From a virus: a DNA stretch of 64,000 bases. Shown piece by piece: positions 1,106 through 35,866 of the stretch. The DNA is taken from positions 2,842 to 66,841 of IMG/VR virus record IMGVR_UViG_3300020577_003088; one strand, written 5' to 3'. How positions within the stretch are numbered: position 1 is the stretch's first letter; each line of letters begins with the position of its first letter. A model generated the notes under the pieces. The model did no database searches and was not told the origin of the DNA. It worked only from the letters and a program-made list of their open reading frames with translations. The translations under genes and the position numbers were made by a program.

Positions 1106-1121
1106 GCCGAGGAGCCGCGCC

Positions 1122-2322: not shown

Positions 2323-2335
2323 GGAGACGGAGAAA

Positions 2336-2545: not shown

Positions 2546-2648
2546 CCCCCGCCCCCTCCTGAAGCATACCCCCTCGCCTCCCTAAACCCCACACCCCGAA
2601 GCGCGGTACCTAACACCCCCTTTCCCGTGAGGCGCTTATCATGCGCCC

Positions 2649-4642: not shown

Positions 4643-4716
4643 CGCCTGCTTAACCCTTTCACTCTACCCCAAATCACTTCACGGGTGACGACAACCGTCG
4701 CCGTTTGGGGAACCAC

Positions 4717-5286: not shown

Positions 5287-5305
5287 TCCTTCCTTCGTGC
5301 GCATT

Positions 5306-5349
5306 GCGGCGCCGGTCGATTTGCTCCCGACCGGCGCCGCTTCATGTTC
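5306..5349. terminator. Bidirectional intrinsic terminator between convergent genes
   Basis: Perfect 13-bp stem GCGGCGCCGGTCG / CGACCGGCGCCGC with a 9-nt loop, followed by a T-rich run. It sits between the stop of the OMP gene (5286) and the stop of the minus-strand gene (5348). Confidence 0.6.
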
Positions 5350-5641
5350 ACCAGTAATAGATATGCGGACGCTTCGCCGGGGCGAAGGTCACGTCATCGA
5401 GATCGGCGTCACCCTTCGCGATGCGACGGAGTACGGCCTTTTCCTTGGCCCGGTACGGGCGGCGATGGAACGTGATGTCCCACCAGCGAGGCCACGAGCA
5501 CAGCCAGTTATAGTAGGGCTGGCGTTCGTGACGGCGGCGATCATGCCCTCCCCGGTTCGCACCAGTACGGGGGCGTTTGCGCTTGTAGTGCGCCATGTCG
5601 AAGCCTTTCGATTGAGCCTTACAACATGGCGATCTCCTCAT
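5348..5641 (-). CDS. Arg-rich basic small protein (hypothetical)
   Basis: Only minus-strand ORF in the structural block, convergent with the OMP gene. KRKRPRTGANRGGHDRRRHERQ... An alternative start at 5596 (MAHYKRK) has a GAAAGG RBS. Confidence 0.35.
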   Translation of the reverse strand: MRRSPCCKAQSKGFDMAHYKRKRPRTGANRGGHDRRRHERQPYYNWLCSWPRWWDITFHRRPYRAKEKAVLRRIAKGDADLDDVTFAPAKRPHIYYW

Positions 5642-16376: not shown

Positions 16377-16991
16377 ATGTGTGAACCAGCCACCATCGCC
16401 ATGGTCGTCACTGCCGCATCGGCGGTGGTGGGCGGCTACAGCGCCATTCGCAGCGGCCAGGCGCAGCAGGCGAGCGCCGAGTTTCAGGCGGCGCAGTCTC
16501 GCGAGAACGCCAAACAAGTCGATAACGACATCAAGGTGGCGCAAGAACAGGCCGCCATCGAGCGCCGCCGCCTCGGCGCCCAAGCCCGCGCCGACAAGGG
16601 CGATCTGGTGGCGAAGTATTCGGCCATGGGGCTTGACCCTGGCTTTGGCTCCCCCGCCGATCTCATCGGCGATGTGAAGTCCGCCTATGACATTGACCGC
16701 TCGATCCTCAACGCCAACGAGATCAGTCAGCTTCAGCGCTTCGACATGGAGAAGTCGAATCTCTTGAGCCAAGCGTCCCTTTACGAGGCCGAAGGCAAGG
16801 AGGCGATGAGGGCCGGGTATCTCGGCGCGACCAAGAGCCTGCTTGATGCGGCGGGCTCTGTCGCTGGGAAGTGGCGTCCGTCCGCAGCGACGACGGGCAA
16901 ATCGCTCTCTGCGTCCACTGTGAAGAAGTCCTATGTCCCGAAATATACGCCGCCGCCCTATAAGAGCGGCTTGCGTGTCTGGAGCGGCTGA
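16377..16991 (+). CDS. Internal core protein, gp14-like (putative)
   Basis: 204 aa (T7 gp14 is 196 aa from memory). N-terminal hydrophobic segment IAMVVTAASAVVGGYSAI followed by helical/Gln-rich sequence. Confidence 0.4.
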   Translation: MCEPATIAMVVTAASAVVGGYSAIRSGQAQQASAEFQAAQSRENAKQVDNDIKVAQEQAAIERRRLGAQARADKGDLVAKYSAMGLDPGFGSPADLIGDVKSAYDIDRSILNANEISQLQRFDMEKSNLLSQASLYEAEGKEAMRAGYLGATKSLLDAAGSVAGKWRPSAATTGKSLSASTVKKSYVPKYTPPPYKSGLRVWSG

Positions 16992-17303: not shown

Positions 17304-19190
17304 ATGCCTCAAGTTCCCGTCATTCAGGACCGTCTCGACCTCGAAGTTCCGGGTGTTCGGTCGCGTGTGCAATCAAGCCCGAACGCTTTCGGCGCCCAGA
17401 GCGCGGAAGCGCTTGGCGCCTTGGCCGCCAAGGCGGGCGGGATGGTTTCTGCATGGGACGCCAAGCAGGATGAGAACGACGCCAAGGAACTCGACAACCA
17501 GCTTTCGGCGTTGATCCGCGAACAACTCTACAACCCGGAGCAAGGCTACCTCACCACGCAACGCGGCAAGAACGCTGTGGATGGCCGCCAAGGCGCCGTG
17601 GAAGGCTTGCGCACGCGGGCTGAAGAGATCGCCTCCCGCGCGCGTTCGCGCTCGTCAGCGACGCTCTTTCGGGATGTAGCGTCCCGTCGCCTCAATGACG
17701 CGGTGACGACGATCTACCGCCACGCCGACGAGCAGAACGATGTCTATGAAGACGAGCTTTCGGACTCTCGTCTGAAGGAGTTCACGAACAACGCGGTCGC
17801 CTCCTATCAAGACCCCTCCGCCGTGCAAGCCCAGATCGCGGGCGGCATGGGCGAGATCGCCACGATTGCCCGCCGTCGCGGCTGGTCGCCAGAGCAGACG
17901 ACGGAACGCACGCGGACCTTCCAGTCCGGCGTGCTGTCGGCCACGATCCGCCGTCTTGGTCACGATGACCCGAACCAAGCCCAGCAAATCTTCGACAGCG
18001 TGCGCGGCGCCATGACGGCTGTCGATGTCTCCGAGACCGAGAACGCGCTGCGCGAGGGAACGCTGCTGGCCCGGTCGCAGGCTGAGACGGATCGCATCTT
18101 CGGGGAGTTTACCGACTATGCGGATCGTCTCGACGCAGCCCGCGAGATCGAAGACCCGTTCCTCCGCGACAAGGTGGAGGACGCCGTGGTGCAGCGCCAG
18201 GCGCGCAACGAGGCGCGCTACGCTTCGCTGAAAGGTCGCGTGTTTCAAGCCTACGCCAATGGCCGCCCCCTCTCCTCTTTGTCGGCGGAAGACCGTCTTG
18301 CGCTGACGACGGAGCCCGAGCTTGGGCAGTTCCACGCGCAAATCCAAGACGCTTACCGTTCGCGGGCGGCGTCTTACGCAAGCGGCGAGCGCGTCAGAAG
18401 CGACGGGCCGATCTATCACATGATGTTGCGCATGGCTGGGTCGGACAGAAACGCCTTTCGCGCGGCCATGGAAGACCCCAATGTTCTCGCGGGCATGTCT
18501 CAAGGCGACATCACAGAGCTTTTGAAGATGCTCAATAGTCAAGAAGAGGGCGGCGGCGTCACGGCGAGCAACCAAATCTTTCGAGCCGTCGCCGACGTGG
18601 CCGAGCCCATGCTTCGGCCCTACGGCGTCGATCTTCACGCCAAGCCGGACGATCCTGTGCGGCGTGCTTTCGAGTATTCGCTCTCGCGCGAAATTGAAGC
18701 GCATGTAAGAGATAGCGGCGGGCGCATGCCGAATCAGCAACAGCTAAACGGCATCATCGGACGGGCCATCGTGAACATGGACATAGACTCCGTGCGCGGT
18801 TTGCCGAGCAGCATCACCGCCCCTAGAGAAGCGCGCAACGCTGATGGGCGAAGACTTGCGACGGTCGGTGGCATTCGTCAAGGCGACAACACAATCGGGG
18901 TGCCTTACGACATCATCCCCGTTGAAGAGCGTGACGCCATTCAACGGCGCCTTCGCGCTATCCGCGGACGCCAACCGAACCGCGAAGAGGTCGTGCGTGA
19001 ATACGCCGGGAACTTGCGCGGACAAGGCACCTTTGTCGCGTTCGATGACATTCCGGCGGATGCACGCAACTTCATCATCCGAACCATTGGGCTCGGTGAT
19101 AGGCCGACAGAAAAGAACGCGCGCGCTGAATACGATGCGCGTGTGGAAGGCGTTTATAGGGCGCACATGGAACGGACTGGCACGCGATGA
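17304..19190 (+). CDS. Internal core protein, gp15-like (putative)
   Basis: 628 aa, mostly helical. Its stop overlaps the start of the giant ORF (ATGA). Its position parallels T7 gp15. Confidence 0.45.
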   Translation: MPQVPVIQDRLDLEVPGVRSRVQSSPNAFGAQSAEALGALAAKAGGMVSAWDAKQDENDAKELDNQLSALIREQLYNPEQGYLTTQRGKNAVDGRQGAVEGLRTRAEEIASRARSRSSATLFRDVASRRLNDAVTTIYRHADEQNDVYEDELSDSRLKEFTNNAVASYQDPSAVQAQIAGGMGEIATIARRRGWSPEQTTERTRTFQSGVLSATIRRLGHDDPNQAQQIFDSVRGAMTAVDVSETENALREGTLLARSQAETDRIFGEFTDYADRLDAAREIEDPFLRDKVEDAVVQRQARNEARYASLKGRVFQAYANGRPLSSLSAEDRLALTTEPELGQFHAQIQDAYRSRAASYASGERVRSDGPIYHMMLRMAGSDRNAFRAAMEDPNVLAGMSQGDITELLKMLNSQEEGGGVTASNQIFRAVADVAEPMLRPYGVDLHAKPDDPVRRAFEYSLSREIEAHVRDSGGRMPNQQQLNGIIGRAIVNMDIDSVRGLPSSITAPREARNADGRRLATVGGIRQGDNTIGVPYDIIPVEERDAIQRRLRAIRGRQPNREEVVREYAGNLRGQGTFVAFDDIPADARNFIIRTIGLGDRPTEKNARAEYDARVEGVYRAHMERTGTR

Positions 19191-22100
19191 CCCCGCAAGA
19201 AGAGGAAGAACTGCGCCGGTCCATAGAGGCGTCGCAGAAAAGACCGGGGCTTTCTGCGCTTGAGCAGCGCGCCTTTGGCGAGCAGCGAGCGCCTGAAGAA
19301 GTTGCGCAAGATCACGAAATCGCCAGCCAGGTCGGCGTGCCCGCCCCTGCCGTTCCTTCGCAACGTGAGACCTATCAACGTCTGGCGCGCACGCTCGACG
19401 CTTCCCGCCGCACGCGCGAAACGCCGCGCCTGCAAGCATGGCTTGCCGAGGGCGACAACTACGCCCTTGCGCAAAACGACCTCGATCTTCTGGGCCGGAT
19501 TGAGACCTATGCGCAGTCCATGCGCGATGCGTTCGATCCGAAGAGCGGACTGTCGGCGGGCGAGCGCGTCTCGCGCGTCCTCTTCCCGGTCAACCGCCAG
19601 ACCACCGTTCCCGAAGACGTGCAGCGCGGCATCGACCAGACAATCTCCAGCTATCGCGCTGGCGAAGCGCAGATGCGGATTGCGCGTCGTCTCGAAGACG
19701 AACTCACCGGCCTGAACGACCGGGGAGAAATGAGCGTTGACGTTGGTCTTTATCGAACCATGCAAGAGCGCGACCGTTTGCGTCGCGAGGGATTGCAGGG
19801 CGACGCTGGCGAAGTCGTCGAGACCATTCCGAATTTCCTCGGCGTATTCCCCGCAATGGCGCAGGGCGTAATCAACACGGAAACTGATCTCTTCAAAGAC
19901 TATGAACGTCAGTTCCGAGAAGAGTATGCGAAAGACCCGGCAGGCACCGTCGTCGGCGCCGCAGCGACAGCGCCGTTGCAAATGCTGATCGGCGTCGGCG
20001 GCATTCCCGCAGGCTTCATTGAGGGCAAGAACCGTTACACCTACCGTCTCGAAGCGGGCTCCGCCTATGAGACCATGGTCGGTATGAAGACCGTGGACGG
20101 ACAACCGATCCGCCCGGAGATCGCCGCCCGCGCCGCGCGCGACTACGGCATGATCGCGGCGGGCATCGAAAATATGGACTTTGTGCTGATCGGGTCGCTG
20201 GTGAAGCATACGCTTGAATCGGCTGGCCTGAAACTCTCAAGCCCGATGGCCAAGCGCATGGTCATGGCTATGGCGCTGCGTCGCTATGGCGTGGAAGTGC
20301 TGAAGCAAGGGGCCTCTGAAGGCGTTGAAGAAGGTAGCCAAGCCCTCGCGGAAATCCTAATGCGCGAGCGCGCCAAGGCTGACGACGGTCGTCGTTTCGA
20401 GGCGCTTGACCTTGGCCAGGCCGCAGCGGAAATCGGCCAATCCGTCAAGATCGGCGCCATCTTCGGCGGTGCTGTCGGCGGCGTTGCTTCCATCCCTTCC
20501 CTTGCGCTTGATCTCGACGCTGTGGCCGCGACAGAGCGCAATCAAGAAGCCTTCCGCCAATTCGTCGAACGCGCGCAATCGGCGCAACTCGCAAGGCTTT
20601 CGCCGGAGGCGATGGAGTCGGCGCTTAACGCGGTCACGGCGAACACGCCTATTGAGGATGTCTCCATCAATGTAGACGCTTTCACGGAATACTTCCAATC
20701 CAAGGGGCTCGACCCCATGCGCGCGGCGGCGGAACTTGGCGTGACGCCCGAGCAATATGACGCCGCCTATAAGGCGCATGGAGAACTGCGCTTCAAAACC
20801 GGCACGGTGCAGCAACGCATGATCCCCACGCCGCACTATGCGGCGCTGGCGGATCATATCCGTGTCGGCGACAGTCTGACGCCCGCCGAAATGAAGATGC
20901 AAACGGCGATCTTCCAGAACACTTTGGAAACGGCGCTGAAGAAGACGGCCTCGACGGCGGAAACGATTGAGGCCGCACGCAAGGTCGGCGACATCATGCG
21001 CGAGAAGTTCGCGCGTGCTGCGGAAGAAGGCGGCCCGAGGCCGGAATATGCTGATCGCGTAGCGTCTCTGTGGCAGGCGCTCTTTCAGACATTGGCCACG
21101 CACATCCAGCAAAGTCCCGAGCTTTCCGCTCGCCTCGGCACAAACGCAGAGGAAATCTTCAGCAAGTTCGGCTTCGACGTGCGCGGCGTGGGGCGTGCGA
21201 ACGATCCGGTAGATTTCCGTACTGTGCGCGGCGACACGACCGAAAACCCTTTCCGCTGGAACGATGAAGCGCCGCAGCCGCGTGAAGACGCCTACGATGA
21301 TCTTGGCGATGGCCTTGTCGAGCAACCGAACTATCTCGACCGTGCGCGCCAGGCGATGGACGAAATGGGCGATGCGGCGGAGCCGACGCCTGGTCGCGAA
21401 GTTCTTGAAGGCATTCCTGACGACCGCTTGATCGAACCGCTGGCGCTCGCCATGGCGGCCAAGCTGCGTGGCGAGTTCGATGCACAACTGGTGATGGATG
21501 AAATCCTCGGCCAAGCCGAGGACATGCTCTATGTCGAGCAGGCCGCCGAGGAGCGCGCCAGCGAGATCATCGACGAAGATGAAATGGCCGACGACGCAGA
21601 AGCATCGCTGGCCGACGACGAAGAGCTTCGCGCCGAGGTCATGGATCGGCTGGAAAATCTGCCGCCGGATGTGCCCTTCAACGCCATCCCTGACGGCGTG
21701 ATCGTCGGCGTCGCCTTCCCCAAAGGCGAGGCGTTGCTGACCCTGCGAAAGCCGACAGAGGACGGCGAGATCGCCACAAGCTGGGGACAGACGCTCTACT
21801 ATACGGCGGGCGAGCACGTCATTCTTGGCGAGGCTGAAGGCGATCCCCGGCCTGTTCGTCGCGACATTTTTGAAGCGACATATGAGCAGGCCGAAGACGG
21901 ACGCTGGCGCAAACGCCATGACGTTCCTGTCGGTTTCTGGACGGCGGAAGAAGATGGCGTCATCAACGCCATCGAAGGACCGGAGCCCTACAAGGCGGGC
22001 GATGTCATCCTGATCGGCGTTCTCGGCGAAATGTGGCCGACGAAGGCGGCTTCTTTCGAGGCGAACAATACGATTGTTGTGGAGGAAGACTACGAGGACC

Positions 22101-25100
22101 GCGCGAGCGAAGTCTTCCATGCGATCACGACGAGCGGAAAAGTGTCATCGGCGCCGCGTCGCGTCTACGACACGGAGACCATTGGCCGTGTCAACCCCGA
22201 ACATACGATCATCATTCAATCGCCGCGTCATAGCGATCTGATGAAGATGACCCGCTTCACGCGGCAAGTGTGGGGAGAGAGCGCGCCAGGCATCGTTCGG
22301 TTCATGGAGGACGACGAGGGCAACCTTTACGCCTCCCCTGCTGCGGGCATGTTGCATGACCGCATGGTGGACGTGCTGAAACAGCACGGCGTCAATGTTT
22401 CTTATAACTCTGTCCACGGCTTCATCATCCGGTCTGGCGATACGCTTTATTGGGCGAACGTCGAATACGGCCCGATGAAGGGGACGCTTCTCGAAGATCG
22501 CGTCGAGGTCGAGTTCGCGAAACGCAATAAGCTGAGTGAACTCTTCCAGTCTCCCGCTGATGCTAGCGCGGCGACGAAAGAGGCGGATGTCCCGATGGCG
22601 ACGGCGCGGGCGCTGCGCTATATGGCGCTCGCTCAAGGCGGCGCAAACAATGCGGCGGTCTATCGCCAAATGGCCGCCGAGTTCAACATGACGATTGGCT
22701 CTGTCAAGGCGACGCTTTCCACCTTGAGGGGGCGTATCCGCAAGGCGGAAGAGGATGGGACGCTAGACGATCTTGGCCAGGAACTGTCCATGTCCGCAGA
22801 GGACATGAAGCGGTTTGCCGCGCCGCAGCAACGGGGACGCTCTCCCGAGGGAGAGGCGCGTCGCCTGAAGGCGGTGCGCGCGCGCGTTGAACGCCGCCGC
22901 GCGTCCGGCTCGCCGTCTGGTTACGCACTCCGAAAGAATATCGAGATCAGCACGCGCGACACGCGCGAAATTGTCCTTCGGTTTACGGACTACAGCGCCC
23001 AAGGCATGTCGCGAGCGGAAGCATTCGCGCAACTGGAGCTTGACGGCGGATGGGCGGAAGGCGTCGCCAACAAAGTCGTGTCTCAACAACGCTCTGCGCT
23101 TCAGAAGCGGATCGACCGCGAAGGGCTGGAGGCTGTCGCGGCGTCGCTGACCCTGACGCCTGACATTCTCGACGCCTATATGGAGCGCCGGACGGCTGGC
23201 GCGAAACGCAACGAAGAGGAAGGCCGGATCATCGAGCTTTCCATGCAGGGCGTCAAACCCGCAGTGATCGCCGAGCGCCTGCGTCAGCCGGTCGAATCCG
23301 TTCGCAACACAGTGTCTCTGATCCGCCGGGTGCAGAAACTCAAGATGATGGGGCGCTCCATCGAAGAGATTGTCGCCTTGACCAAGCTGTCGCGCGGTCG
23401 GGTGGAAGAATACTACGCCATCCCCTATATTGGTCTTGGCTCGCGGTCGCGGTTCGGCTGGGGCGACACCGTGGCCGAACAGAGGCAGACCGGCGAGAAC
23501 ATTCGCGCTCGGCTCTATGAGCTATTTGACGCCGATCCGCTGGCGCTGATGAAGGAGCACCAAGCGCGCCTTCGCGCGGAGGGCTTCCCGCCCGTCGATC
23601 TGGGCACCTTGCGTCGGTATGTGCGTAATCGCTATCTTGGAGGCGACAATGGAAATGGACGATTTCCCGGCGGCGCCGGAACTGACGCCAGCGGAGCGAG
23701 CGGAAGCGGAGCGGTGGGCGGCCCAGGTGCGGTCGGTGGCGCAAGCCCCGCTGCCGAAGCCCCGGTTCCCGGCCAAGTCGCAAGCCGAACGGACCCGGCT
23801 GAAGACATTGCTGTCGCGGGCGGGTTTCGCCGCCGAGGGCTCGGCGCTTTACAGCTTGATCCCGCCAGTCCGTGGCGCACGCCGGTCGCGCAAGGCGACG
23901 CTCTAGCCGACAATAGCGCCACTCTTCCCCTCTCGGAAGAGGAGCGCGCGGCGCGTCATAGCCTCTTTGCGTCGATCCTTGCCGACACGTCGCTGGAAAC
24001 GCAAACCGACGCCCGCGCCTATACGCCGGGCCAAGCCTTCGCGCATCCCGTCAAGGGCTGGGTGCAAGTCCCCGCCGGGCGAACGGTTCCGGCGGAGACG
24101 CGGCGCTATTCTCTGGCGGTTCCGCTGCGCGCGCATCGCTCTTGGGATGTCGCCTTCAGTTCGGAGGCGACCTATCTTGAAGTCGAGATCATCGGCAAGA
24201 TGGCGGTGATCCACGGCGCAGCCACGCACCCGGCGCTACGAGGCGGCGGCGTCGGCACGCAGCTTTACCGCGACGTGATCGACGCGCTGCTGGCCGAAGG
24301 CAAGCAAGTCTTCTCGGATCAATCGGTCTCCGATGACGCAATGCGCGTGTATGAGCGCTTGCGTCAAGACGGTTACAGTGTGAAGCGGGTCGGCAATGGC
24401 GCGCTGTCAAAGCTGACAGTCATTCGCGGCTATAGCCCCCAGAACACAACGCAAGACGGCGCCTCTATCTACGAGGTCGCGGGCAAGCGTGACGCTGATG
24501 AAGTCTTCCAGACCAATTCCCTGCGGACGGCGAACGCCAAAGTCGCCGAAGACTTGATCGCGCAAGGCGTGCTCCTGACCGATTTCAAGACGCCAGAACT
24601 CGACGACCAGTTCCGTTATCGCCGCGCTGCTTCGCTGCGTGACGCGCCCGTGGCGGTCTATACCCTTCCCTCCACCCGCCAGACGGCGAAGATGGAAGTG
24701 ACGGTCACGGAGGCGCCCGCTTCGATCTCCGCCGCCAATCGCGGCTACCAGGGCCTTGCGACCATCAATATGGAGTATGCGGGCTCTACGGAGTCTGGTC
24801 GTCGCGGTCATGCCAAGGGATCAGCCGCCGACGCGCTGCGGGTCTTCTCCCTGCTTTATTCGATCTTCATGTACGACATGCGCGAACGTAATGCGCGCGG
24901 CTATGTGTTCACGGGCGCCACGCCGGAACTCTCGCGGTTCTATGCGTATACCATGAGCAAGATCGACTTCCCCGGCTACACGCTCTATTACGCGCCGCAA
25001 GCCGACACGTTCTTCTTCATGCGCAATGGCGAAGCCTTGCCTGATGCCTATGCGGGCGTGAAGCCGCTTCGCCCTGATGCGCTTGGCGAGGTCTATCAGG

Positions 25101-28100: not shown

Positions 28101-31100
28101 TCGAGGCGCAAAACCTCTCCACCTTGCTCCATGAGAGCGGCCACGTCTTCCTTGAAATCTTCCAGACCATCGCCAACGACAAGGATGTGCCGCCTGAACT
28201 GCGCGCCATGTGGGCGTCCACCATGGCGTGGATGGGCAAAGAGCCTGGCGAAGCGCTGACCCGAGAAGATCACGAACTCTGGGCGCGCACGTTTGAGGCG
28301 TATCTGAAGGAAGGCAAGGCGCCGTCGCTTGCGCTACGGGATGTCTTCCGCATCTTCCAAAGCTGGTTGCTGAACGTCTACCGCCAAGTCAAGGGCATGC
28401 TCGTCGGTCGCGACGGGCGCGTCTATGGCGACGTGAAACTCTCGCCCGAAATCACGGAGGTCTTCGACCGCCTGCTGGCGAGCGAAGAAGAGCTTGCCGT
28501 GGCGCGTGACTTCATGGAGGCGGATCGTCCGTTCTTCCAGACGCGCGAAGAGAGCGGCATGTCCGAAGCCGCGTGGGCTGACTATGTGAAATCCATCGAC
28601 GACGCGCGCATCGAGACGGAGACCGCGCTGCGTGTCAAGGCGATGGACAAGTATACGCGCAAGGAGCGCCGCGAGTGGCGCGTCATGCGCGAGAGCTTCC
28701 GCGCGACGGCGACGCGCGATGTCGATACGGACATGGCGCGACGCGCCTATGAGTGGCTGGCGGACGGCACATGGCGCCCCCTGCCCCCGGAGAAGGATGA
28801 AGACGGCAACGACATTCCGCCTGACCCGGCTTACGACAAGCCTGCCGATCTGCCGGATATGCGCCTCGACACGAAAGAGGTCGCAACCGTCTATGGCGAC
28901 GAAGCGCTCGCCAATCTGCCGCGCGCGCTGAAGCCTGCGACAGAAGAGGATGTGGATGCGCTGCTTGCCGACGCGCAAGCCGTGAAGCGTTCTGGCAAGG
29001 TCCGCAAGGCGCTGCGCCTTAGCGCATGGGTTCGCAAGCGCGGCGGCGTCAAGGATGTGGGCGGCGACATCGCGGCGGCTATCGGCGGGGCGAAGACCCG
29101 TCCTGGCGTCATAAATAACGCGACCGGCAAAGACCTCGACGATCTCGCGGTGGCGGCTTGGGAAGACGGTTTCTTTGGTCCGAAGCCCGGCAAGGCGTCG
29201 GCTGATCCCGATGAGACGGGCGGCTCGACGCCGGGCGAACTTTTCCAGATGGCGGGTCCGAAGTCCAAACTCGTCGACAAGAAAGTTCTGAAGCACGCCA
29301 AGCGCATGCACCGCAAGAAGAAGGCGAACTCCGAAATCTGGGCGGAGACGGCGGCCATGAACCAGCCGTGGTATCGCAACGAGAATGGCGAGTGGGTCAC
29401 GGAGTTTGAAGACGGCGCGATCCGCGTTGTCGTGGACGGCAGCGGCAAGCTGGAAGAATACATCGACTATGAGAGCGCCACGAGCCACTATCCGCAACTG
29501 AAGCGGTATGGCGTCAAGGTGCAGACGCCGAAGAAAATCAAGGATCGTGCGCTCGGGCGGTTCATTCCGTTTCTGAAGAAGATCGAGGTCAACGCGCCGA
29601 AGCCGATCCGCGAAAGCACGGTGGCGCACGAAACGCTGCACGCCATCGATGACATCGAGGGTCGCAAGTACGGCCTCGGCATGCGCTACGGCCTACGCCC
29701 TGGCGAACGTCGCGCGTTCAATGTGGAGTTCCGTCGTCGCTGGACGATGGCGCAACGCATCGCCATGCCGCCATGGGTCACGGAAGAAGACGCTGTGAAT
29801 TGGGCGCTCGGCGGGCGGACAGATGACAAGCAAGCCGTCGCGGCGGTCGAAGAAAAGTATAAGGGCCTTCCCCTGCCCCGCGAGGAAGTGAAGCCGCCGC
29901 AGCGACGTGCGGAGCCGTATCAGCCGCGCCGCGAAGAAGAGCTACCGAAGATTTTTAATGAGGATCACGAAGAGGAAACCCGCCTCTCTGTTCCTGGCCG
30001 CGTGTTCTTGAGCCGGGCGGAAATCGCCAATGCGCGCAAGAAGGATGACACGCTGCCGGTCGTCACGGATGAGACCGAGATCGACTTCGACAAGAAGCTG
30101 TCGGAACAAAATCCGGTTGTCGCTGACAAGTTGCGCAAACTGCTGAAAGAGCACAATGCCTTCGGCATCTACAACAAGCGTGGGCGCTCGATCTATATTC
30201 GAGGCGAACAGCGCCGCTATGTCGGCGGGTATACGCCGCCTTATGAACCTAAACTTGTCAGCCACAACTCTTCCGAACGCTCGCGCCAGGCGATAGCGTT
30301 GGAAGGCGCCATCATGCGCGCGGTGCAGAATTGGGAGGATGACGCCTATGACATAGGCTACCGCGTCGCCTATGCAAAAGCGGAGGGACTCACGAAAGAG
30401 GCATTCGCCGAGCAAGAGATTGAGGAGATCACGAGCCGCGCATGGGGGCACGAAGAGTTAGAGGACGGAACATCAGTCTCTTTGATGCCTGAAGAGAATA
30501 AGGAGAGCATTCGCAAGATCGTTGATCTGGCGTGGGATCGCGTCTCTATCGACCACGAAACGGCCTACGGATCGTCGGTCTTCGACTCTCTGGCCAATGA
30601 ACTCGGCACGCTCGGCGCCATTCAAGCGCTTGCGGATGAAGGTATTGTTGCGGGACGTTTCCGGTCTCAAGGGACGGATGTCGGCCAATCCGTCGTCGTC
30701 TTCGGCCAAGAGTTCACCGGCCATGACGCTGCGCGGACTCGCTGGGGCTGGTTCATGTCGCTCGCGGGCGCTGAAGATGGCGCCACTGTCAGCGGCGGCG
30801 CGGCGCGTTTTGGCACGGATGAAGAGATTGCTTCGCTTGTCGATCTGGTGATGGCGGGCGCGAGCGCCAAGCAAGTCTTCGATCACCCTGTCTATCAGCG
30901 GATCGTCGCGCACGATGAGGCGGCGGTGTCCACCCTGCCCGCCGATTTCACGGAAGAGCAGCTTGCGGCGCGCGTCTATGTAGAAGGTCGCAACGCCGCG
31001 CAAGTCATCGACACGGCCAAGCGCGCCTTCGAGCAAGCCGCTGGCGGCATGACCGCCTATGATCGCAAGGCGACGCTGGTGTTCGGCATTCCCGGCGCGG

Positions 31101-34100
31101 GCAAGTCCACCTTCTCGAAGTCCATCGCGGCGACCCGTCAGGCGGCGCTCGTCGATAGCGATGTCATTCTGGAGCAAATCCCCGAATACGAGAACGGCTA
31201 TAACTCCAGCGCCGTGCGTCGCGAAGCGTCGTTCCTGCGCGATGTCGCTCTGGCGGAAATGATCGCCAGCGGCCAGAACCTTGTGATCGAGCGGATCGGC
31301 GACACTGACGAGCAGGCGCTTGGCCATATCCAAGAGCTTCGCGCGGCGGGCTACCAGATCGAAGTCGTGCATGTGGCTATCGGTCAAGACGAAGCCGTGC
31401 GTCGCGGCGCGCTCCGCTTCGTCGAGACAGGCCGCTATGTGTTGCCGCGCGTCTATGACAAGGCGGGCGACAATACGGGCAAGGTTTTCTCCCGCACCAT
31501 TGAAAACATTCCTCTCGATGGGTATATAGAGATCAATGCCGAAACTCCCCGGAACCAAGCGCAAGTCATCCGGTCGCAAGGAAGCCAAGACCTCCTTGCC
31601 GGATTGGCACCCCGACTGGCGTCCCCCGCCGGAAGCCCTGGCGCGCGCACGCGCGGTCGTGGACCGGCAGCGCCAGACGAACTCTTCCAGTCCGCCGACG
31701 ACGGCCTCCGTCCCGCAGGCGCCCTCTTCCGACAAATCGTGGGAGGAGATAATCGCGGAGGAACTGCGGAGTCAGGAAGCGCTCGACAGCCAGCGCCCAA
31801 ACTAGAGCCGATCTCCCGCCCGCCGACGCAGGCGGACGGCACGGTCGTTCTGACACACTACAGCGTCCGGCCCGATCTGACCCAGACTGACCCGGCCTAT
31901 CATGGCGCCGGTTTGTCCCGTCGTAGCGCCGACAATCAGCGGGGCGCTATCCCGCGCACTTATTTCGGCATCGGCGTCGGCATGCCCGGCGGCTATGTGA
32001 AAGAGTATGGTCTCGGCGAGCACGTCTACCAGACACAAGTGCCGCTCTCGCGTCTCTATGATGCGAAGGCCGATCCTGACGGCATCGTTCGCGCCGTGAA
32101 TGAAGAGTTTGCCGGTCAGCCTGGCCCTGTCCGCTTCACCGAATGGGAGAAGCGGATCAAGGCGGCAGGCTATATGGGCTATTGGGTCAACATGCAGGCG
32201 ATCCAGCCGTCGATGGGGATTGTCGCGGCGGTGTTCCGGGCGATCCCCGTGGCGCGGATCGGAGACGTGCAGGAGCTTTATCAGTCGAGTTCGCTGCCGC
32301 TCATGAGCGACGAGCAGCGTAAGCAGCTTGAGGCCGAAGGCTTCGATACCAGCCGTATCTTTTGGCGCGTTAGCAACGTCAGCGACGGACCGATTCGAGT
32401 AAGCACGCGCGGATTGATGGGAAATGGCGTCTATGTTTGGACGAAACGAACTGCCGTCAATAAAATTAAGAACAATACACGACTAAACGCCGTCGTTGTT
32501 CGTGGCGAACTGCCTATCATCGCAACGCAGCAAGAAGCCAAGCAAGCAATCGCCAATGGCGCGGCAGGCTATATTCTCGACGACACCTACAAAATGCCAA
32601 TGGCGGTGATTGTTGATCCTGAAAACATCCGTGTTGTGGCGAGTGTGGGGAGCGATGGGGTAGATGAACTCTATCAAGATCAGCGTCGCCCCTCTCTTGA
32701 GGAGTTCCGTGACGCGCTGATCGCCGATCTGCGCAACGAGCGCGCTGTCTATTCCTCTGACGACGATGCGGCGATTGAGGAACAAGAGCGGCTGCAAGCA
32801 CTTCGCCGCTGGTTTGAGGCGCGCGGCGTCAACCTCCAAGCCGACAAAGACGATCTGCGCCGTCAGATCGAGGCGGTTGTCCAGCGTGAGAAGAATAACC
32901 CGCTGGCGACGCCGCCGGACATCGCCGCGCAATGGTTCGGCTTCGAGGATGGCGAGGCGCTGCTGAAGGCGGTGAGCGGCCTGCCCTCTCGTGAGCGCGC
33001 CATTGAAGAGCGCATGACGGCGATGGTCGAGGCCGAGATCGGCGATCCGTTCTCGGATGGACGCATCGTCGAAGAGGCGCGTCTCGCCGCTCACCTTGAA
33101 GTGCAAGCGCGCCGCCTTGAGATCGAACTTGCCGCCCTGCAACAGGCGACGGGCGGTCGCGCCAAGCCGGTGGCGCAAGCGGCGAAAGCCTTCGCCGAAC
33201 GCCAGATCGGCATGATGACCGTCAAGCAGGTGCGGGGCTATGATGCTTTCCTCGCCGCCGAGCGACGCTCTGCGAAGGCCGCGCAAGAGCGGTTCCGTGC
33301 GGGCGATCTCGACGGCGCCGCGCTGATGAAGCAGCGCCAGCTTGTGAACTTCCATATGTACCGCCTCGCCCGTCAGGCGGCGGAGGAAATGGATCGCACG
33401 CAGGACTACTTCAAGAAGTTCGACCGTCCGACCATCCGCGCCAAGATCGCGACGCCGCATCTGGATCAGATCGACCAGGCGCTCGAAAGCATCGACATCC
33501 GCAAATCGCCGCCGTTCTCGGAGCGCCGCCGTCAAGGCTTCCTTGCATGGGTGCAGTCCATGAAGGATGCAGGCCGCGAGCATGAGATCGACGTTGATCC
33601 GCAATTTATGGAGCAAATCTCGCGCCGTCCGTTCAACACGTTGACCCTGTTGGAAGCGCGCGGTCTGCGGGACGCGATCAAGAACTTCGAGCACATCGGC
33701 AAACGCTTCAACGAAGTCATGGTGGCGCGACGCAAGCGCGAATACAACGAGCTTGTTCGTGAGCTTGTCACGGCCATCGACAAGAACGATCCGATCATCA
33801 AGGATCAGATCAAGGGCGAGAGCGAGAGCTTCTTCGAGAAGATGAACGATCTGCGCCTGAAGGCGCACGCCGAGCATACGAAGATGGAGTTTCTGTTCCG
33901 GCTGCTCGACGGCCTCAAGGATAATGGCATTGTCTGGCGCACGCTCTTCTTCCCCCTCGCGCGGGCGGAAGATGAAGAGCAAGTCATGCGCAATGCGTCG
34001 GCGGAGCGCATCGGCGCTATCTTCGGCGTCTATACCAACAGCGAGCGCGCCGCGATGTTCGGCAAGCGGGTGCTGGTGAACGAAGTCGCCACACGCATGA

Positions 34101-35866
34101 CAAAGGCCGAAATGCTGGCCGTGGCGCTGAATTGGGGCAACGAAGGCAATCGTCTGGCGCTACTGGAGGGCCATGGCTGGAACCCCTCGCAAGTCGAAGC
34201 GGTGCTCTCGCGTCTCGACAAGCGCGATTGGGATACGGTGCAAGCGATCTGGGACTGGATCGGCGAATACAAGCCCGCGTCATTCGCGTTGCAAGAGCGA
34301 CTGACGGGCGTCCGCCCCGCCGAGGTCGAACCCCTCCCCGTCTCGACGAAGTTCGGCGTCTATCGCGGCGGCTACTATCCGCTGCGCTATGATCCGCGCC
34401 GCAGCGAGAAGACCTTCAAGCGCGAAGAGAAGGTGAAGACGCTGGAGGAGTTCGGCTCCAACTGGATCAAGCCGCAGACCAAGAAGGGCCACTTGATCGA
34501 GCGCACGAAATCTGGCGGCCAGCGCGTGCGTCTCGATATGGGGGTGCTCACCGAGCATGTCGAGAATGTCATTCACGACATCACGCACCGGGAAGCGATC
34601 ATCACGACGCTGCGTCTTATCGAAGACCCGCGCTTGGCGGAAGCGATCAAGGGCGTGGTCGGCGTGCAAATGTATCGCGTGATCCGTCCGTGGCTCTCGC
34701 ACATCGCCGCCGATCAGCGCCAACCCGCTGGCGCCATCGAGCGTATCTTCTTGCGCGCACGCATGGGCGCCCAGGTCGTCAATATGGGCTGGAAGATCAC
34801 GACCGCGATTGTGCAGCCGCTCGGCCTACTGAACTCGGTGCCGCGTGTCGGCGCCGCCGAGATCGCAACCGAGGCGACCAAGTTCCTTGGCAATCCCTTC
34901 GCCATGAAAAACGCCATCGACTTCATCTTCGCCCGCTCGACGATGATGAAGAACCGGATGGATACGTTTGACCGCGATGTGCGTGAAGCGCTCGCGCGGC
35001 TTCGTGGTCGCGCCGAAGGCGATGTGGTCCCGGTCGGCATTCGTCAGTCGATGTTCTGGCTGACCGGCGTTCTCGACATGAGCGTTGCAGCGCCGACATG
35101 GCTGGCGGCCTACAAGAAGGCGATGAAGGGCAAGGTCGACAACATCAAGGCCGACGACGAGCAGGCCGCTATCGCCCACGCGGACAGCATTGTGCGGATG
35201 ACGCAAGGCGCGGGCGGTGTGAAAGACCTCGCCGAGATCACGGGCCGCTCATCGCAACTGATGAAGCTGTTCACGATGTTCTATTCCTACATGAGCAACC
35301 TCTACAATCAGCTTTATGTGGAGCAGGCGCCGGGCGTGCGGGGCAAGCAGATCAGCAAGGCGGCCTTTATCGGCAACCTCTTCTTCCTGTGGCTGGCGCC
35401 CGCCTATGTCGCCATGTTGCTGCAAGGCCGTGGCGACAAGGACGACGACGAGACGGTGGAGGAAATGCTCTGGCGTCAGGGTAAGGAGGTCGGCGCATAC
35501 CCGCTCCAGACCATCGTCGGCGTGCGTGATGTCGTGGCGGCGACCTCCAGCGGCTATGGCTACGAAATCAGCCCGGTCACGGATGTCGGCGTGACGACGG
35601 TCGGCGCGCTCTCCAAGGCGGGAGAAGCGGCCTTTGAGGGCGTGACCGGCGAAGATGGCGGCGTGGATGAGCATGAGCTTCGCGCGCTGATGAAGGATAC
35701 GACCATGGCGACCAGCTATTGGCTGGGCGCTCCTGGCCGTCAGTTGTGGACAAGCGGCTCTTATACGTCGGACGTTCTCACAGGCCGCGAGGAGACCCCA
35801 TGGGAAGACCCGGAGGCTTTCTGGAATGAGGGCCTGTTGAGGGACGCCAACGACCCGACCCGGTAA
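19187..35866 (+). CDS. Giant (5,559 aa) multidomain virion ejection / polyvalent effector protein in the gp16 slot
   Basis: Single uninterrupted 16,680-nt ORF. Motifs seen: GNAT (RGGGVGTQLYRDVIDALL), HESGH and HETLH (HExxH), P-loop GIPGAGKST with a zeta-toxin-like downstream region, sigma-r4/LuxR-like HTHs, and a C-terminal hydrophobic segment AAFIGNLFFLWLAPAYVAMLL. Confidence 0.8.
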   Translation: MTPQEEEELRRSIEASQKRPGLSALEQRAFGEQRAPEEVAQDHEIASQVGVPAPAVPSQRETYQRLARTLDASRRTRETPRLQAWLAEGDNYALAQNDLDLLGRIETYAQSMRDAFDPKSGLSAGERVSRVLFPVNRQTTVPEDVQRGIDQTISSYRAGEAQMRIARRLEDELTGLNDRGEMSVDVGLYRTMQERDRLRREGLQGDAGEVVETIPNFLGVFPAMAQGVINTETDLFKDYERQFREEYAKDPAGTVVGAAATAPLQMLIGVGGIPAGFIEGKNRYTYRLEAGSAYETMVGMKTVDGQPIRPEIAARAARDYGMIAAGIENMDFVLIGSLVKHTLESAGLKLSSPMAKRMVMAMALRRYGVEVLKQGASEGVEEGSQALAEILMRERAKADDGRRFEALDLGQAAAEIGQSVKIGAIFGGAVGGVASIPSLALDLDAVAATERNQEAFRQFVERAQSAQLARLSPEAMESALNAVTANTPIEDVSINVDAFTEYFQSKGLDPMRAAAELGVTPEQYDAAYKAHGELRFKTGTVQQRMIPTPHYAALADHIRVGDSLTPAEMKMQTAIFQNTLETALKKTASTAETIEAARKVGDIMREKFARAAEEGGPRPEYADRVASLWQALFQTLATHIQQSPELSARLGTNAEEIFSKFGFDVRGVGRANDPVDFRTVRGDTTENPFRWNDEAPQPREDAYDDLGDGLVEQPNYLDRARQAMDEMGDAAEPTPGREVLEGIPDDRLIEPLALAMAAKLRGEFDAQLVMDEILGQAEDMLYVEQAAEERASEIIDEDEMADDAEASLADDEELRAEVMDRLENLPPDVPFNAIPDGVIVGVAFPKGEALLTLRKPTEDGEIATSWGQTLYYTAGEHVILGEAEGDPRPVRRDIFEATYEQAEDGRWRKRHDVPVGFWTAEEDGVINAIEGPEPYKAGDVILIGVLGEMWPTKAASFEANNTIVVEEDYEDRASEVFHAITTSGKVSSAPRRVYDTETIGRVNPEHTIIIQSPRHSDLMKMTRFTRQVWGESAPGIVRFMEDDEGNLYASPAAGMLHDRMVDVLKQHGVNVSYNSVHGFIIRSGDTLYWANVEYGPMKGTLLEDRVEVEFAKRNKLSELFQSPADASAATKEADVPMATARALRYMALAQGGANNAAVYRQMAAEFNMTIGSVKATLSTLRGRIRKAEEDGTLDDLGQELSMSAEDMKRFAAPQQRGRSPEGEARRLKAVRARVERRRASGSPSGYALRKNIEISTRDTREIVLRFTDYSAQGMSRAEAFAQLELDGGWAEGVANKVVSQQRSALQKRIDREGLEAVAASLTLTPDILDAYMERRTAGAKRNEEEGRIIELSMQGVKPAVIAERLRQPVESVRNTVSLIRRVQKLKMMGRSIEEIVALTKLSRGRVEEYYAIPYIGLGSRSRFGWGDTVAEQRQTGENIRARLYELFDADPLALMKEHQARLRAEGFPPVDLGTLRRYVRNRYLGGDNGNGRFPGGAGTDASGASGSGAVGGPGAVGGASPAAEAPVPGQVASRTDPAEDIAVAGGFRRRGLGALQLDPASPWRTPVAQGDALADNSATLPLSEEERAARHSLFASILADTSLETQTDARAYTPGQAFAHPVKGWVQVPAGRTVPAETRRYSLAVPLRAHRSWDVAFSSEATYLEVEIIGKMAVIHGAATHPALRGGGVGTQLYRDVIDALLAEGKQVFSDQSVSDDAMRVYERLRQDGYSVKRVGNGALSKLTVIRGYSPQNTTQDGASIYEVAGKRDADEVFQTNSLRTANAKVAEDLIAQGVLLTDFKTPELDDQFRYRRAASLRDAPVAVYTLPSTRQTAKMEVTVTEAPASISAANRGYQGLATINMEYAGSTESGRRGHAKGSAADALRVFSLLYSIFMYDMRERNARGYVFTGATPELSRFYAYTMSKIDFPGYTLYYAPQADTFFFMRNGEALPDAYAGVKPLRPDALGEVYQDIFYSALERALEALKVKEATAAEWRKLIVSPAEVKRSVQRGPDNKPMMDAEGKPVMTERVIPESVRLPGVKRDEIDWTGLLDLLDFMSESPQMAPVKLSKDQLVDFVRQRGVNVEVHGEDETTGDAVDFDTWRDENEDAIYEREREIIDQQFDEDYSAPDLEVVQGSSDVRDVRDSIAYYQRQIESTEYTIRNMLAGRGMWDREDIERLRAKIAGYKEDIIREQRRLGEAPATDPYSLDMFTGAWVISLITSAGREQPVATYWDEDVARRALAAYQSNTAYSDIGTTFSLTREFLTQEVEPEFSEEEINSYYVIDHDADDDVVGGPYSSEDEAERDMEDYLRSHREKAYDNFVDGDMIWALEQAEQDLWDDYLHGNGNHRVAYSEWTTKGGKDYQAVRLSLPPRNRVTATPEVEHVPNHAIGSQYVLVDAITGQRAKSVSSNLYFATREEAEAAAEKGDAWFQLDEYGFRDNHFPENNILGWIRTKTYTDADGRKVLFIEEVQPQWQQKGLDRGFQKRVNQRVWRKIVQETKDAHDRYDALVAAADERLASWSADTGVPIDDNLRRMRSDEWVIAYRDDTANYIRAIARDSEVLKDVDLADEIAARIAAAKIQEETRLDATRYRVTQKVGDYVVVRGDYRTMDMANDEKGYLDRQGYEVSITEINSGIQVEVYPPTGVDLGAALDAADADVQRAQQAMEDARSPAGAVADMPFKQTPAAAGLFMKWAIRYAVENDFDAVAWTTGAQQAKRYNQLVDHIDELRWQPDPNDPEAGRLAAIQRGNIRRWITVGKGLPGAAHASATSDGTLDELVGKELADRLRAAPTKDEEFYGVDGYQSVSGVNLEFGGEGMKGFYDKILVNITNDLIKKSGQRVKSLGLGIEKSGAFSGIRPARTMWEVVAPDGVVTYRSIERDTAQWNADQSNAENGNDYGAAYTVREAHDDMDAGEAQPSFDINDELRSIAMGGFPYLQADGSTKMGSTVFDRWGSSNSGELRAAVIRLFEAQNLSTLLHESGHVFLEIFQTIANDKDVPPELRAMWASTMAWMGKEPGEALTREDHELWARTFEAYLKEGKAPSLALRDVFRIFQSWLLNVYRQVKGMLVGRDGRVYGDVKLSPEITEVFDRLLASEEELAVARDFMEADRPFFQTREESGMSEAAWADYVKSIDDARIETETALRVKAMDKYTRKERREWRVMRESFRATATRDVDTDMARRAYEWLADGTWRPLPPEKDEDGNDIPPDPAYDKPADLPDMRLDTKEVATVYGDEALANLPRALKPATEEDVDALLADAQAVKRSGKVRKALRLSAWVRKRGGVKDVGGDIAAAIGGAKTRPGVINNATGKDLDDLAVAAWEDGFFGPKPGKASADPDETGGSTPGELFQMAGPKSKLVDKKVLKHAKRMHRKKKANSEIWAETAAMNQPWYRNENGEWVTEFEDGAIRVVVDGSGKLEEYIDYESATSHYPQLKRYGVKVQTPKKIKDRALGRFIPFLKKIEVNAPKPIRESTVAHETLHAIDDIEGRKYGLGMRYGLRPGERRAFNVEFRRRWTMAQRIAMPPWVTEEDAVNWALGGRTDDKQAVAAVEEKYKGLPLPREEVKPPQRRAEPYQPRREEELPKIFNEDHEEETRLSVPGRVFLSRAEIANARKKDDTLPVVTDETEIDFDKKLSEQNPVVADKLRKLLKEHNAFGIYNKRGRSIYIRGEQRRYVGGYTPPYEPKLVSHNSSERSRQAIALEGAIMRAVQNWEDDAYDIGYRVAYAKAEGLTKEAFAEQEIEEITSRAWGHEELEDGTSVSLMPEENKESIRKIVDLAWDRVSIDHETAYGSSVFDSLANELGTLGAIQALADEGIVAGRFRSQGTDVGQSVVVFGQEFTGHDAARTRWGWFMSLAGAEDGATVSGGAARFGTDEEIASLVDLVMAGASAKQVFDHPVYQRIVAHDEAAVSTLPADFTEEQLAARVYVEGRNAAQVIDTAKRAFEQAAGGMTAYDRKATLVFGIPGAGKSTFSKSIAATRQAALVDSDVILEQIPEYENGYNSSAVRREASFLRDVALAEMIASGQNLVIERIGDTDEQALGHIQELRAAGYQIEVVHVAIGQDEAVRRGALRFVETGRYVLPRVYDKAGDNTGKVFSRTIENIPLDGYIEINAETPRNQAQVIRSQGSQDLLAGLAPRLASPAGSPGARTRGRGPAAPDELFQSADDGLRPAGALFRQIVGGDNRGGTAESGSARQPAPKLEPISRPPTQADGTVVLTHYSVRPDLTQTDPAYHGAGLSRRSADNQRGAIPRTYFGIGVGMPGGYVKEYGLGEHVYQTQVPLSRLYDAKADPDGIVRAVNEEFAGQPGPVRFTEWEKRIKAAGYMGYWVNMQAIQPSMGIVAAVFRAIPVARIGDVQELYQSSSLPLMSDEQRKQLEAEGFDTSRIFWRVSNVSDGPIRVSTRGLMGNGVYVWTKRTAVNKIKNNTRLNAVVVRGELPIIATQQEAKQAIANGAAGYILDDTYKMPMAVIVDPENIRVVASVGSDGVDELYQDQRRPSLEEFRDALIADLRNERAVYSSDDDAAIEEQERLQALRRWFEARGVNLQADKDDLRRQIEAVVQREKNNPLATPPDIAAQWFGFEDGEALLKAVSGLPSRERAIEERMTAMVEAEIGDPFSDGRIVEEARLAAHLEVQARRLEIELAALQQATGGRAKPVAQAAKAFAERQIGMMTVKQVRGYDAFLAAERRSAKAAQERFRAGDLDGAALMKQRQLVNFHMYRLARQAAEEMDRTQDYFKKFDRPTIRAKIATPHLDQIDQALESIDIRKSPPFSERRRQGFLAWVQSMKDAGREHEIDVDPQFMEQISRRPFNTLTLLEARGLRDAIKNFEHIGKRFNEVMVARRKREYNELVRELVTAIDKNDPIIKDQIKGESESFFEKMNDLRLKAHAEHTKMEFLFRLLDGLKDNGIVWRTLFFPLARAEDEEQVMRNASAERIGAIFGVYTNSERAAMFGKRVLVNEVATRMTKAEMLAVALNWGNEGNRLALLEGHGWNPSQVEAVLSRLDKRDWDTVQAIWDWIGEYKPASFALQERLTGVRPAEVEPLPVSTKFGVYRGGYYPLRYDPRRSEKTFKREEKVKTLEEFGSNWIKPQTKKGHLIERTKSGGQRVRLDMGVLTEHVENVIHDITHREAIITTLRLIEDPRLAEAIKGVVGVQMYRVIRPWLSHIAADQRQPAGAIERIFLRARMGAQVVNMGWKITTAIVQPLGLLNSVPRVGAAEIATEATKFLGNPFAMKNAIDFIFARSTMMKNRMDTFDRDVREALARLRGRAEGDVVPVGIRQSMFWLTGVLDMSVAAPTWLAAYKKAMKGKVDNIKADDEQAAIAHADSIVRMTQGAGGVKDLAEITGRSSQLMKLFTMFYSYMSNLYNQLYVEQAPGVRGKQISKAAFIGNLFFLWLAPAYVAMLLQGRGDKDDDETVEEMLWRQGKEVGAYPLQTIVGVRDVVAATSSGYGYEISPVTDVGVTTVGALSKAGEAAFEGVTGEDGGVDEHELRALMKDTTMATSYWLGAPGRQLWTSGSYTSDVLTGREETPWEDPEAFWNEGLLRDANDPTR

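Follow-up and report, generated by a model that had tools for sequence, protein, structure and literature searches.

A cysteine-free 5,559-residue protein with two cargo bays in the gp16-like slot of a BPP-1-like podophage

What kind of protein is specified by a single open reading frame (ORF) of 16,680 nt that stands among the structural genes of a podovirus? The question is raised by a 64,000-nt stretch of viral DNA, positions 2,842 to 66,841 of IMG/VR record IMGVR_UViG_3300020577_003088 (the window, numbered from its first letter). An earlier note, made from the letters of this stretch, had read the ORF as a polyvalent effector protein of a T7-like phage, lying where T7 encodes its ejected core protein gp16. 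Sequence comparison now places it firmly in the Bbp10 family, named after a protein of Bordetella phage BPP-1, of which it is the largest member found so far. The explanation that we favor, with good confidence, is that of one real gene for a Bbp10-family protein in the IVP-D slot (that of internal virion protein D, gp16 in T7), equipped with two cargo bays and injected whole into the host.

The reality of the gene is supported by several properties of the frame. The nearest in-frame stop on its 5′ side lies at 19157, so that position 19187 is the earliest ATG possible, and this start codon and the stop codon (TGA) of the 628-aa gene before it share the ATGA pointed out by the earlier note. 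Stops are absent over 16.7 kb, whereas the two alternative frames show the usual stop density and contain 188 and 184 cysteine codons, against none in the frame of the giant ORF. The GC content of the three codon positions (∼0.67/0.44/0.72) is even in each 1.5-kb slice. Three independent assemblies, each from a different sample, likewise yield a called product of 5,559 aa: JGI 3300033065 (a contig of 66,764 bp, apparently that from which the window derives), Logan SRR32380193 and Logan SRR31616005. Their contigs were located by exact-sequence lookup of the genes flanking the ORF and compared with the window as two overlapping DNA pieces per contig, jointly covering the whole giant gene. The assemblies differ from the window by single-nucleotide polymorphisms (SNPs) only, with zero indels. 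The SNPs inside the ORF comprise five synonymous and two non-synonymous ones (Q1855H and H1875R, window positions 24751 and 24810), the only two such changes among the three assemblies. Internal repeats in the protein and a wrap-around of the window were sought, and none was found. The gene occupies ∼25% of the 66.8-kb contig.

An assembly or sequencing artefact, that is a chimeric join or a missed frameshift fusing several ordinary genes, would find some support in the metagenomic origin of the DNA, in the lack of near-identical DNA in cultured phages (a megablast search of the phage collection gave no match) and in a length that is an outlier within the Bbp10 family. Given three assemblies that differ by SNPs without indels, such an artefact is very unlikely. 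The stop-free frame, its lack of cysteine codons, its even codon-position GC and an order of conserved cores that is colinear with all relatives also speak against it. This explanation is already largely refuted and retains a minimal probability, and the single stop-free ORF described by the earlier note can be taken as real.

The backbone of the protein is defined by profile phrog_9880 (length 2,231), which matches it in three colinear stretches: residues 30–725 (profile 51–735, E 2.6e-20), 2939–3251 (profile 938–1232, E 2.8e-59) and 4576–5538 (E 9.1e-221). In BLAST coverage, the family shares only residues ∼30–680, ∼2940–3250 and ∼4550–5540 of the giant protein. These comparisons show that three conserved cores (N-terminal, HExxH-containing and C-terminal) frame two variable regions, the predicted cargo bays. 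Relatives were retrieved by an alignment-based scan at 533 loci in IMG/VR and 111 loci in GTDB species representatives, mostly Proteobacteria and including many prophages; homologues, which the earlier note had suggested looking for in related phages, are thus documented, BPP-1-type phages included. The alignment was required, and a scan of viral contigs with the single sequence found no relative.

The family survey covers 160 fetched loci and three annotated phages, with 135 complete ORFs that reach 4,002 aa at most and have a median length of 2,288 aa. The annotated members are BPP-1 Bbp10 (2,052 aa), Carin1 gp32 (2,854 aa) and BD1 gp16 (2,986 aa), and in all three phages the phrog_9880 gene is flanked by those for a lysin-bearing protein and the fibre. 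To measure the bays, the HExxH and C-terminal cores served as anchors in 127 complete relatives. Counted from the N-terminus, these have 197 to 2,664 aa before the HExxH core (median 977), and the giant protein has 2,949 aa. Between the two anchors, the relatives have a median of 22 aa and in some cases 505–1,107 aa; the giant protein has 1,340 aa there. Both of its bays exceed those of all ∼160 relatives examined. A search of representative proteins added backbone-bearing proteins of 3,200–3,990 aa, with second bays of ∼900–1,280 aa; no full-length counterpart was present among its matches, and the giant protein is the representative of its own 50% identity cluster. It is ∼39% longer than the next largest relative found.

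Each core has distinctive elements (Table 1). In addition to its LPD22 domain, the N-terminal core has hydrophobic segments at residues 255–273 and 422–443, as judged from hydropathy, and an EYFQS element at residue 501 that is kept in at least 15 relatives. The zincin-like HExxH of the middle core (residues 2982–2986, nt 28130–28144) is kept in Bbp10, Carin1 gp32 and BD1 gp16, and its H, E and H are nearly invariant in an alignment of 21 sequences; the profile of this core has no significant match among PDB sequences, SprT/Spartan being marginal (E 0.76). The C-terminal core contains a strongly hydrophobic helix (residues 5392–5413) and an invariant RGGYYPxKYD motif at residue 5060, and its AlphaFold2 (AF2) model, with a predicted local distance difference test score (pLDDT) of 79, is almost wholly helical. 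Both HExxH sites reported by the earlier note are present (residues 2982 and 3481), and the first, judging from its conservation, belongs to the family core and not to the added cargo.

Table 1. Features of the giant ORF and its immediate neighbors, with window coordinates
Feature	Residues	Position (nt)	Strand	Basis and remarks
gp14-like internal virion protein		16377-16991	+	PF24072 T7_gp14 2.9e-14; phrog_418
gp15-slot protein, 628 aa, lysin-like N-terminus, 0 Cys, Bbp11 equivalent		17304-19190	+	phrog_10475, phrog_1044 (annotated endolysin); BPP-1 synteny
Giant ORF	1-5559	19187-35866	+	5,559 aa, 617 kDa, pI 5.2, cysteine-free, ATG start, single terminal stop
N-terminal family core	30-690	19274-21256	+	phrog_9880, family BLAST coverage, hydropathy
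LPD22 in N-terminal core	32-114	19280-19528	+	Pfam 1.4e-13, 51.3 bits vs cutoff 28.6
Small module, bay 1	814-995	21626-22171	+	common to 5-8 other large proteins; weak phrog_1810, phrog_4502
ELFQ	1118-1121	22538-22549	+	
Helical basic helix-turn-helix (HTH)-like region	1130-1483	22574-23635	+	orphan, sub-threshold HTH matches
Gly/Ala/Pro-rich low-complexity linker	1484-1540	23636-23806	+	
Putative GNAT acetyltransferase	1671-1725	24197-24361	+	Acetyltransf_1 1e-6, 29.4 bits vs cutoff 20.7
EVFQ	1772-1775	24500-24511	+	
Orphan module	1776-1971	24512-25099	+	EVFQ and EVYQ at ends
EVYQ	1968-1971	25088-25099	+	
Remaining bay 1	1972-2679	25100-27223	+	partly common to few relatives
Middle core, zincin-like LSTLLHESGH	2680-3250	27224-28936	+	phrog_9880 profile E 2.8e-59
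ELFQ	3351-3354	29237-29248	+	directly 5′ of LPD23
Bay 2 module 1: LPD23 + second zincin-like site HETLHAIDDIEG...ERRA	3352-3560	29240-29866	+	
Zeta-toxin-type P-loop kinase (putative)	3864-4141	30776-31609	+	Zeta_toxin 2.8e-17 (aa 3961-4108), 63.3 bits vs 22.3
ELFQ	4165-4168	31679-31690	+	Zeta/ART-like junction
ADP-ribosyltransferase (ART)-superfamily (RES/ART-like) module (predicted)	4200-4366	31784-32284	+	no Pfam model
ELYQ	4363-4366	32273-32284	+	
131-aa module	4367-4497	32285-32677	+	ELYQ at both ends
ELYQ	4494-4497	32666-32677	+	shortly before C-terminal core
C-terminal core, all-alpha	4550-5540	32834-35806	+	phrog_9880 E 9.1e-221; AF2; hydropathy
Tail fibre/spike		35902-38685	+	pectate-lyase-like + Gly-rich domains

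With LPD22, a GNAT match, a Zeta-type kinase, two HExxH sites and an ART-fold module in one chain, the polyvalent architecture put forward by the earlier note is upheld. In bay 1, the acetyltransferase that it had recognized passes the curated Pfam cutoff; the match covers the C-terminal half of the model only, and the acetyl-CoA motif LRGGGVG can be read in the sequence. The HTH modules of the same note are still seen as matches in residues 1130–1483, but all fall below Pfam gathering scores: HTH_23 (E 0.018, 15.3 bits against 24.6), Sigma70_r4_2 (E 0.088, 12.9 bits against 25.7) and DUF1670 as a third match (E 1.3e-4, 21.9 bits against 25). HTH modules are weakly supported. The region has no homologues in the sequence sets compared. 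No homologue was found in any of these sets for residues 691–813, 996–1653, 1734–1956 and 2155–2260 either. The two amino acid changes observed among the assemblies lie 20 residues apart inside the orphan module of residues 1776–1971, and both non-window assemblies carry them.

Bay 2 opens with a module of ∼200 aa that contains LPD23 (residues ∼3354–3412) and the second HExxH (residues 3481–3485, nt 29627–29641). LPD23 itself is matched below the cutoff (E 8e-4, 19.6 bits against 27), while homologues of the module reach E 5.5e-22. In nine homologues, the H, E and H within HETLHAIDDIEG...ERRA never vary, nor does the downstream E, and the profile of the module has no significant match among PDB sequences. 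The P-loop kinase of the earlier note corresponds to the Zeta-toxin-type module, whose Walker A sequence GIPGAGKST (residue 3967) falls within the Zeta_toxin match; the zeta toxin of PDB entry 1gvn is retrieved at E 0.022, and modules of this type are found in 114 of the 150 best representative matches. The following module, missing from the motif list of the earlier note, is predicted from its model to adopt an ART fold. Identity to the fold matches is 8–12%, and an H, an R, a Y and an E are invariant as candidate catalytic residues. It is strongly conserved and occurs in 34 of the same 150 matches as well as in BD1 gp16. The next 131 residues (4367–4497) were considered as a second ART-like domain, which was rejected since profile comparison gave no significant similarity.

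Exchange of cargo appears to be a property of the entire family. LPD22 is present at the N-terminus of 11 of the 14 largest relatives, and their bays contain ART-PolyVal (4), LPD23 (3), RadC-JAB (2) and DUF7178 (2), together with a C5 DNA methylase, PBECR5 nuclease, GGDEF, Zeta toxin, peptidases and transglycosylases. The ART-like module lies in bay 2 of the giant protein and in bay 1 of BD1 gp16 and of relatives L029 and L036; L036 and L057 also carry GNAT, and L004 and L084 carry Zeta. Judging from these domain matches, the Bbp10 family as a whole is polyvalent and its modules move between bays. They also travel on other proteins, as 111 of the 150 best representative matches are devoid of the Bbp10 backbone. 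One of them (P0029, 1,290 aa) fuses a portal domain, a Zeta kinase, the same ART-like module and topoisomerase IB, and is by its domain content a further virion-internal scaffold bearing the same cargo. Another (P0020) contains two Zeta-type kinase modules and three cysteines, without Bbp10 backbone; at 6,889 aa, it shows that the giant protein is not the largest carrier of these modules.

The absence of cysteine from all 5,559 residues is a further characteristic of the chain. The 25 other genes of the window that were examined contain 0.65% cysteine (59/9,018 aa), a level at which ∼36 would be expected in the giant protein; the gp15-slot protein is likewise without any. Depletion extends to the Bbp10 family, with 107 cysteines in 369,950 aa (0.029%) and 124 of 163 proteins free of cysteine, and homologues of the modules outside this family have 0.056%. 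Established ejection proteins are also devoid of it (T7 gp15, 0/747; T7 gp16, 0/1,318; N4 gp50, 0/3,500; gp51, 0/644; gp52, 0/150), whereas the portal, tube and fibre proteins of T7 and N4 have ordinary levels. No mention of such depletion in ejection proteins was found in the literature searched. We read it as selection against cysteine in chains that travel unfolded via the tail and the oxidizing periplasm. Given that the absence spans cargo and cores alike, it supports translocation of the whole 5,559-aa chain.

The position of the gene agrees with this view of an ejected protein. The gp16-like slot recognized by the earlier note, with the gp14-like protein and the lysin-bearing gp15-slot protein before and the tail fibre after, is confirmed. 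Bbp10 has been listed, by means of chained hidden Markov models, as an IVP-D homologue of the epsilon15 subgroup, and IVP-D homologues are described as hosts of domains destined for the cytoplasm (Hardies 2016, PMC4819975). A sequence link to T7 gp16 could not be shown directly. A C-terminal-core profile of 58 sequences has no match among PDB sequences, hhalign gives probabilities of 0.8% against T7 gp16 and 0.3% against N4 gp50, and a Foldseek search with the model of this core returned no significant match, the T7 core chain appearing only at E 2.5 and TM 0.10. It is through gene order, helical character, composition and published work that the protein is connected with T7 gp16. The top, non-significant hhalign match pairs GGYYPxKYD of the family (residues 5061–5069) with GTYVPHVYD of T7 gp16 (residues 663–671). 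The alignments set RGGYYPxKYD against the T7 segment KGTYVPHVYD, and that with N4 gp50 falls on this motif too; the correspondence may be a trace of shared ancestry.

Known systems differ from the giant protein to various degrees. The closest are Bbp10, Carin1 gp32 and BD1 gp16, which share with it the three cores, the LSTxLHExGH site, RGGYYPxKYD, the slot after the lysin-bearing gp15-slot protein and before the tail fibre, and near-zero cysteine. They measure 2,052–2,986 aa against 5,559 and are 27–39% identical in the C-terminal core, and the content of the bays is mostly unique to the giant protein. T7 gp16 has the same slot after gp14 and gp15 equivalents and before the fibre, an all-alpha character, no cysteine and an expected role in a membrane channel, but it is 1,318 aa long and has a transglycosylase at its N-terminus as its sole added enzyme; the lysin of the BPP-1 group resides instead in the gp15-slot protein. 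N4 gp50, from the Schitoviridae, is likewise a giant single-chain ejection protein without cysteine, with an HExxH site of metallopeptidase (MPTase) type and an enzyme destined for the cytoplasm within an IVP-D-type scaffold, and it is the founding phage example of a polyvalent protein (PMC4819975, PMC5512222, PMC13434306). With its 3,500 residues it was termed giant; it reportedly occurs in ∼4 copies and is ejected unfolded (PMC13434306). The protein described here is 59% longer and has no polymerase; at least five modules resembling small enzymes take the place of the one main cargo of gp50, an RNA polymerase.

Polyvalent proteins were surveyed starting from the N4 virion RNA polymerase, with MPTase, GNAT, ART and Zeta-like kinase domains and LPD1–40 among their components, and their packaging and injection were predicted (Iyer 2017, PMC5512222). 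Those linked to MuF, portal proteins and conjugative elements follow the same modular logic, with LPD22/23, MPTase, GNAT, Zeta kinase and ART, and modules of the giant protein are 30–50% identical to theirs. They differ in using other delivery scaffolds, including those linked to type IV secretion systems, and are usually much smaller. Polyvalent cargo on a podovirus ejection protein, presented as new by the earlier note, was therefore preceded by Hardies 2016 (PMC4819975) and Iyer 2017 (PMC5512222), and LPD22 and cargo are family-wide; a dedicated literature search on internal virion proteins as polyvalent proteins gave no match. This kind of protein is already published, and the giant protein is an extreme member. 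What the present analysis adds is the two-bay anatomy of the family, an ART-fold module that had no annotation, the lack of cysteine as a signature, and a motif, considered below, that may mark processing sites.

According to the explanation that we favor, a few copies of the protein would be packed in the capsid core alongside the gp14-like and gp15-slot proteins, and the chains would be threaded unfolded through the tail during infection. The cores would contribute to a trans-envelope channel for DNA, while the cargo would refold in the cell and modify host proteins or metabolites, with acetylation, phosphorylation, NAD-dependent modification and proteolysis as candidate activities. It may thereby serve takeover or anti-defence ahead of any phage gene expression. 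Several points weigh against this scheme. Packaging and ejection, like the enzymatic activity of every module, are inferred. About 40% of the chain is without assigned fold or function (the homologue-free gaps of bay 1, residues 3561–3860 and 4367–4497), and a chain of 617 kDa would have to be packed and threaded. Absence of cysteine is also not universal in ejection proteins, cyanophage A4, whose gp26 and gp27 form a disulfide (PMC12002296), being an exception.

A purely structural protein, that is an oversized internal core, DNA-spooling or channel protein in which the enzyme-like segments are inactive relics or spacers, would account for the ∼40% of the chain in which no enzymatic fold is recognizable. 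Internal core proteins of other podophages organize DNA (PMC12002296), and a genome of at least 64 kb, well above those of relatives, might need a larger head and thus a larger core. However, no catalytic signature is disrupted, be it the GNAT motif, Walker A, either HExxH site or the invariant H/R/Y/E of the ART-like module; the modules are kept at 30–50% identity in hundreds of unrelated proteins, unlike spacers, and the bays of relatives hold quite different enzymes. We consider this explanation improbable, though less so than an artefact.

Whether the chain would act intact or processed is the only difference between injection of the whole protein and its reading as an effector polyprotein. 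The latter stems from the motif E-[LVI]-[FY]-Q, which occurs eight times in the giant protein against 0.24 expected from shuffles and is absent from 4,590 aa of neighboring structural proteins. Seven copies (residues 1118, 1772, 1968, 3351, 4165, 4363 and 4494) come after Gly/Pro/Asp-rich stretches; the eighth (residue 2990) lies inside the HExxH helix. Codons vary among the copies, which indicates a constraint on the peptide and not a DNA repeat. Homology coverage changes sharply at four sites, with left/right values of 79/13 at residue 3351, 118/40 at 4165, 38/5 at 4363 and 4/178 at 4494, and few high-scoring segment pairs cross them. LPD23 modules of other proteins start with L[FHN]Q[LMF][AIV]GP, and looser [FY]Q[SG] variants occur in linkers of homologues. 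E-[LV]-[FY]-Q resembles the sites with P1-Gln of the tobacco etch virus (TEV) and 3C proteases, and we count this in favor of processing. Cuts after every motif Gln would yield fragments of 124, 71, 22, 155, 91, 21, 14 and 120 kDa, that is ∼8 products comprising two channel ends and five or six effectors. That the chain is so divided is a tentative proposal, to which we give a distinctly smaller chance than to its delivery as a whole. To the same limited extent, cleavage is possible inside the capsid or following entry, with a zincin-like site of the chain itself or a different protease as the agent; two zincin-like HExxH sites are built in, and autoproteolysis by MPTase domains has been proposed (Iyer 2017, PMC5512222).

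The evidence against processing comes mainly from relatives. The strict motif is not enriched family-wide (37 observed, 24 expected) and is absent from the 4,002-aa member, so that its expected role as a feature of the family was rejected; homologues of the modules contain only 0.11 motifs per 1,000 aa. When the N-terminal EYFQS is counted, two of nine occurrences (residues 501 and 2990) lie within conserved cores. The giant protein has no chymotrypsin-like or 3C-like signature, its lack of cysteine rules out a cysteine protease within it, and zincins are not known to favor Gln at P1. In addition, N4 gp50, which also bears an MPTase, is packaged unprocessed (PMC5512222). The motif copies may be processing sites and are retained as candidates only. 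The broader proposal, in which an injected polyprotein would give two channel ends and about six free enzymes and the absence of cysteine would be a general signature of threading, appears somewhat more doubtful still than division of the chain. If true, one virion-borne chain would deliver a pre-made set of early functions (acetyltransferase, kinase, NAD-dependent modifier and proteases).

The phage itself belongs, on the evidence of its structural genes, to the BPP-1/epsilon15-type group with a Rauchvirus-type structural module and is not strictly T7-like. The giant ORF is surrounded by a podovirus structural module with the C-terminal part of the large terminase, a portal (PF12236, 5.8e-172), a protease-like protein, a major capsid protein (PF20911) and tail tube proteins A and B, and two other head-region genes match Bbp16- and Bbp19-type Pfam families. 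Since this module and the Bbp10 family are BPP-1-like, the T7-like label of the earlier note has to be withdrawn except for gene order. The best cultured matches are BPP-1-like podophages, namely Bordetella BPP-1, Cobetia Carin1, Caulobacter SR18/Jess A, Xanthomonas CP2, Pseudomonas AF and Octadecabacter BD1, with portal identity to cultured phages of at most 49%. Genomes of these relatives measure 39–48 kb, and the present one, of at least 64 kb, is unusually large for the group even when the giant gene is subtracted.

The remainder of the window encodes RecT, a Gam-like protein, DnaB, an AAA ATPase and DUF932. All annotatable genes across the 64 kb are phage-like; no integrase or host gene was identified among the annotated genes, and the window contains no tRNA. 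A terminase fragment lies at its start, and an SPFH/lipoprotein-like gene towards its end. In BPP-1, a diversity-generating retroelement adjoins the fibre genes; no reverse transcriptase was seen here among the genes scanned near and after the tail fibre, no search being aimed at it. NCBIfam and PADLOC searches gave nothing useful.

The passage of the ejected N4 polymerase via a channel of ∼35 Å is an open problem, for which the longer giant protein offers a natural test case. It is equally a test case for how large a protein can be packed in a capsid and threaded through a tail, and for the amount of pre-made function that injection by a small phage can supply. The absence of cysteine and the motif ending in Gln at module boundaries could help to annotate ejected proteins elsewhere, the former as a possible sequence signature of proteins threaded through the tail. 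More generally, as seen from the family survey, ejection proteins of the BPP-1 type constitute a widespread platform for shuffling cargo with two insertion bays, and these bays provide a defined place to mine enzymes for early takeover or anti-defence, including an ART-fold family without Pfam model.

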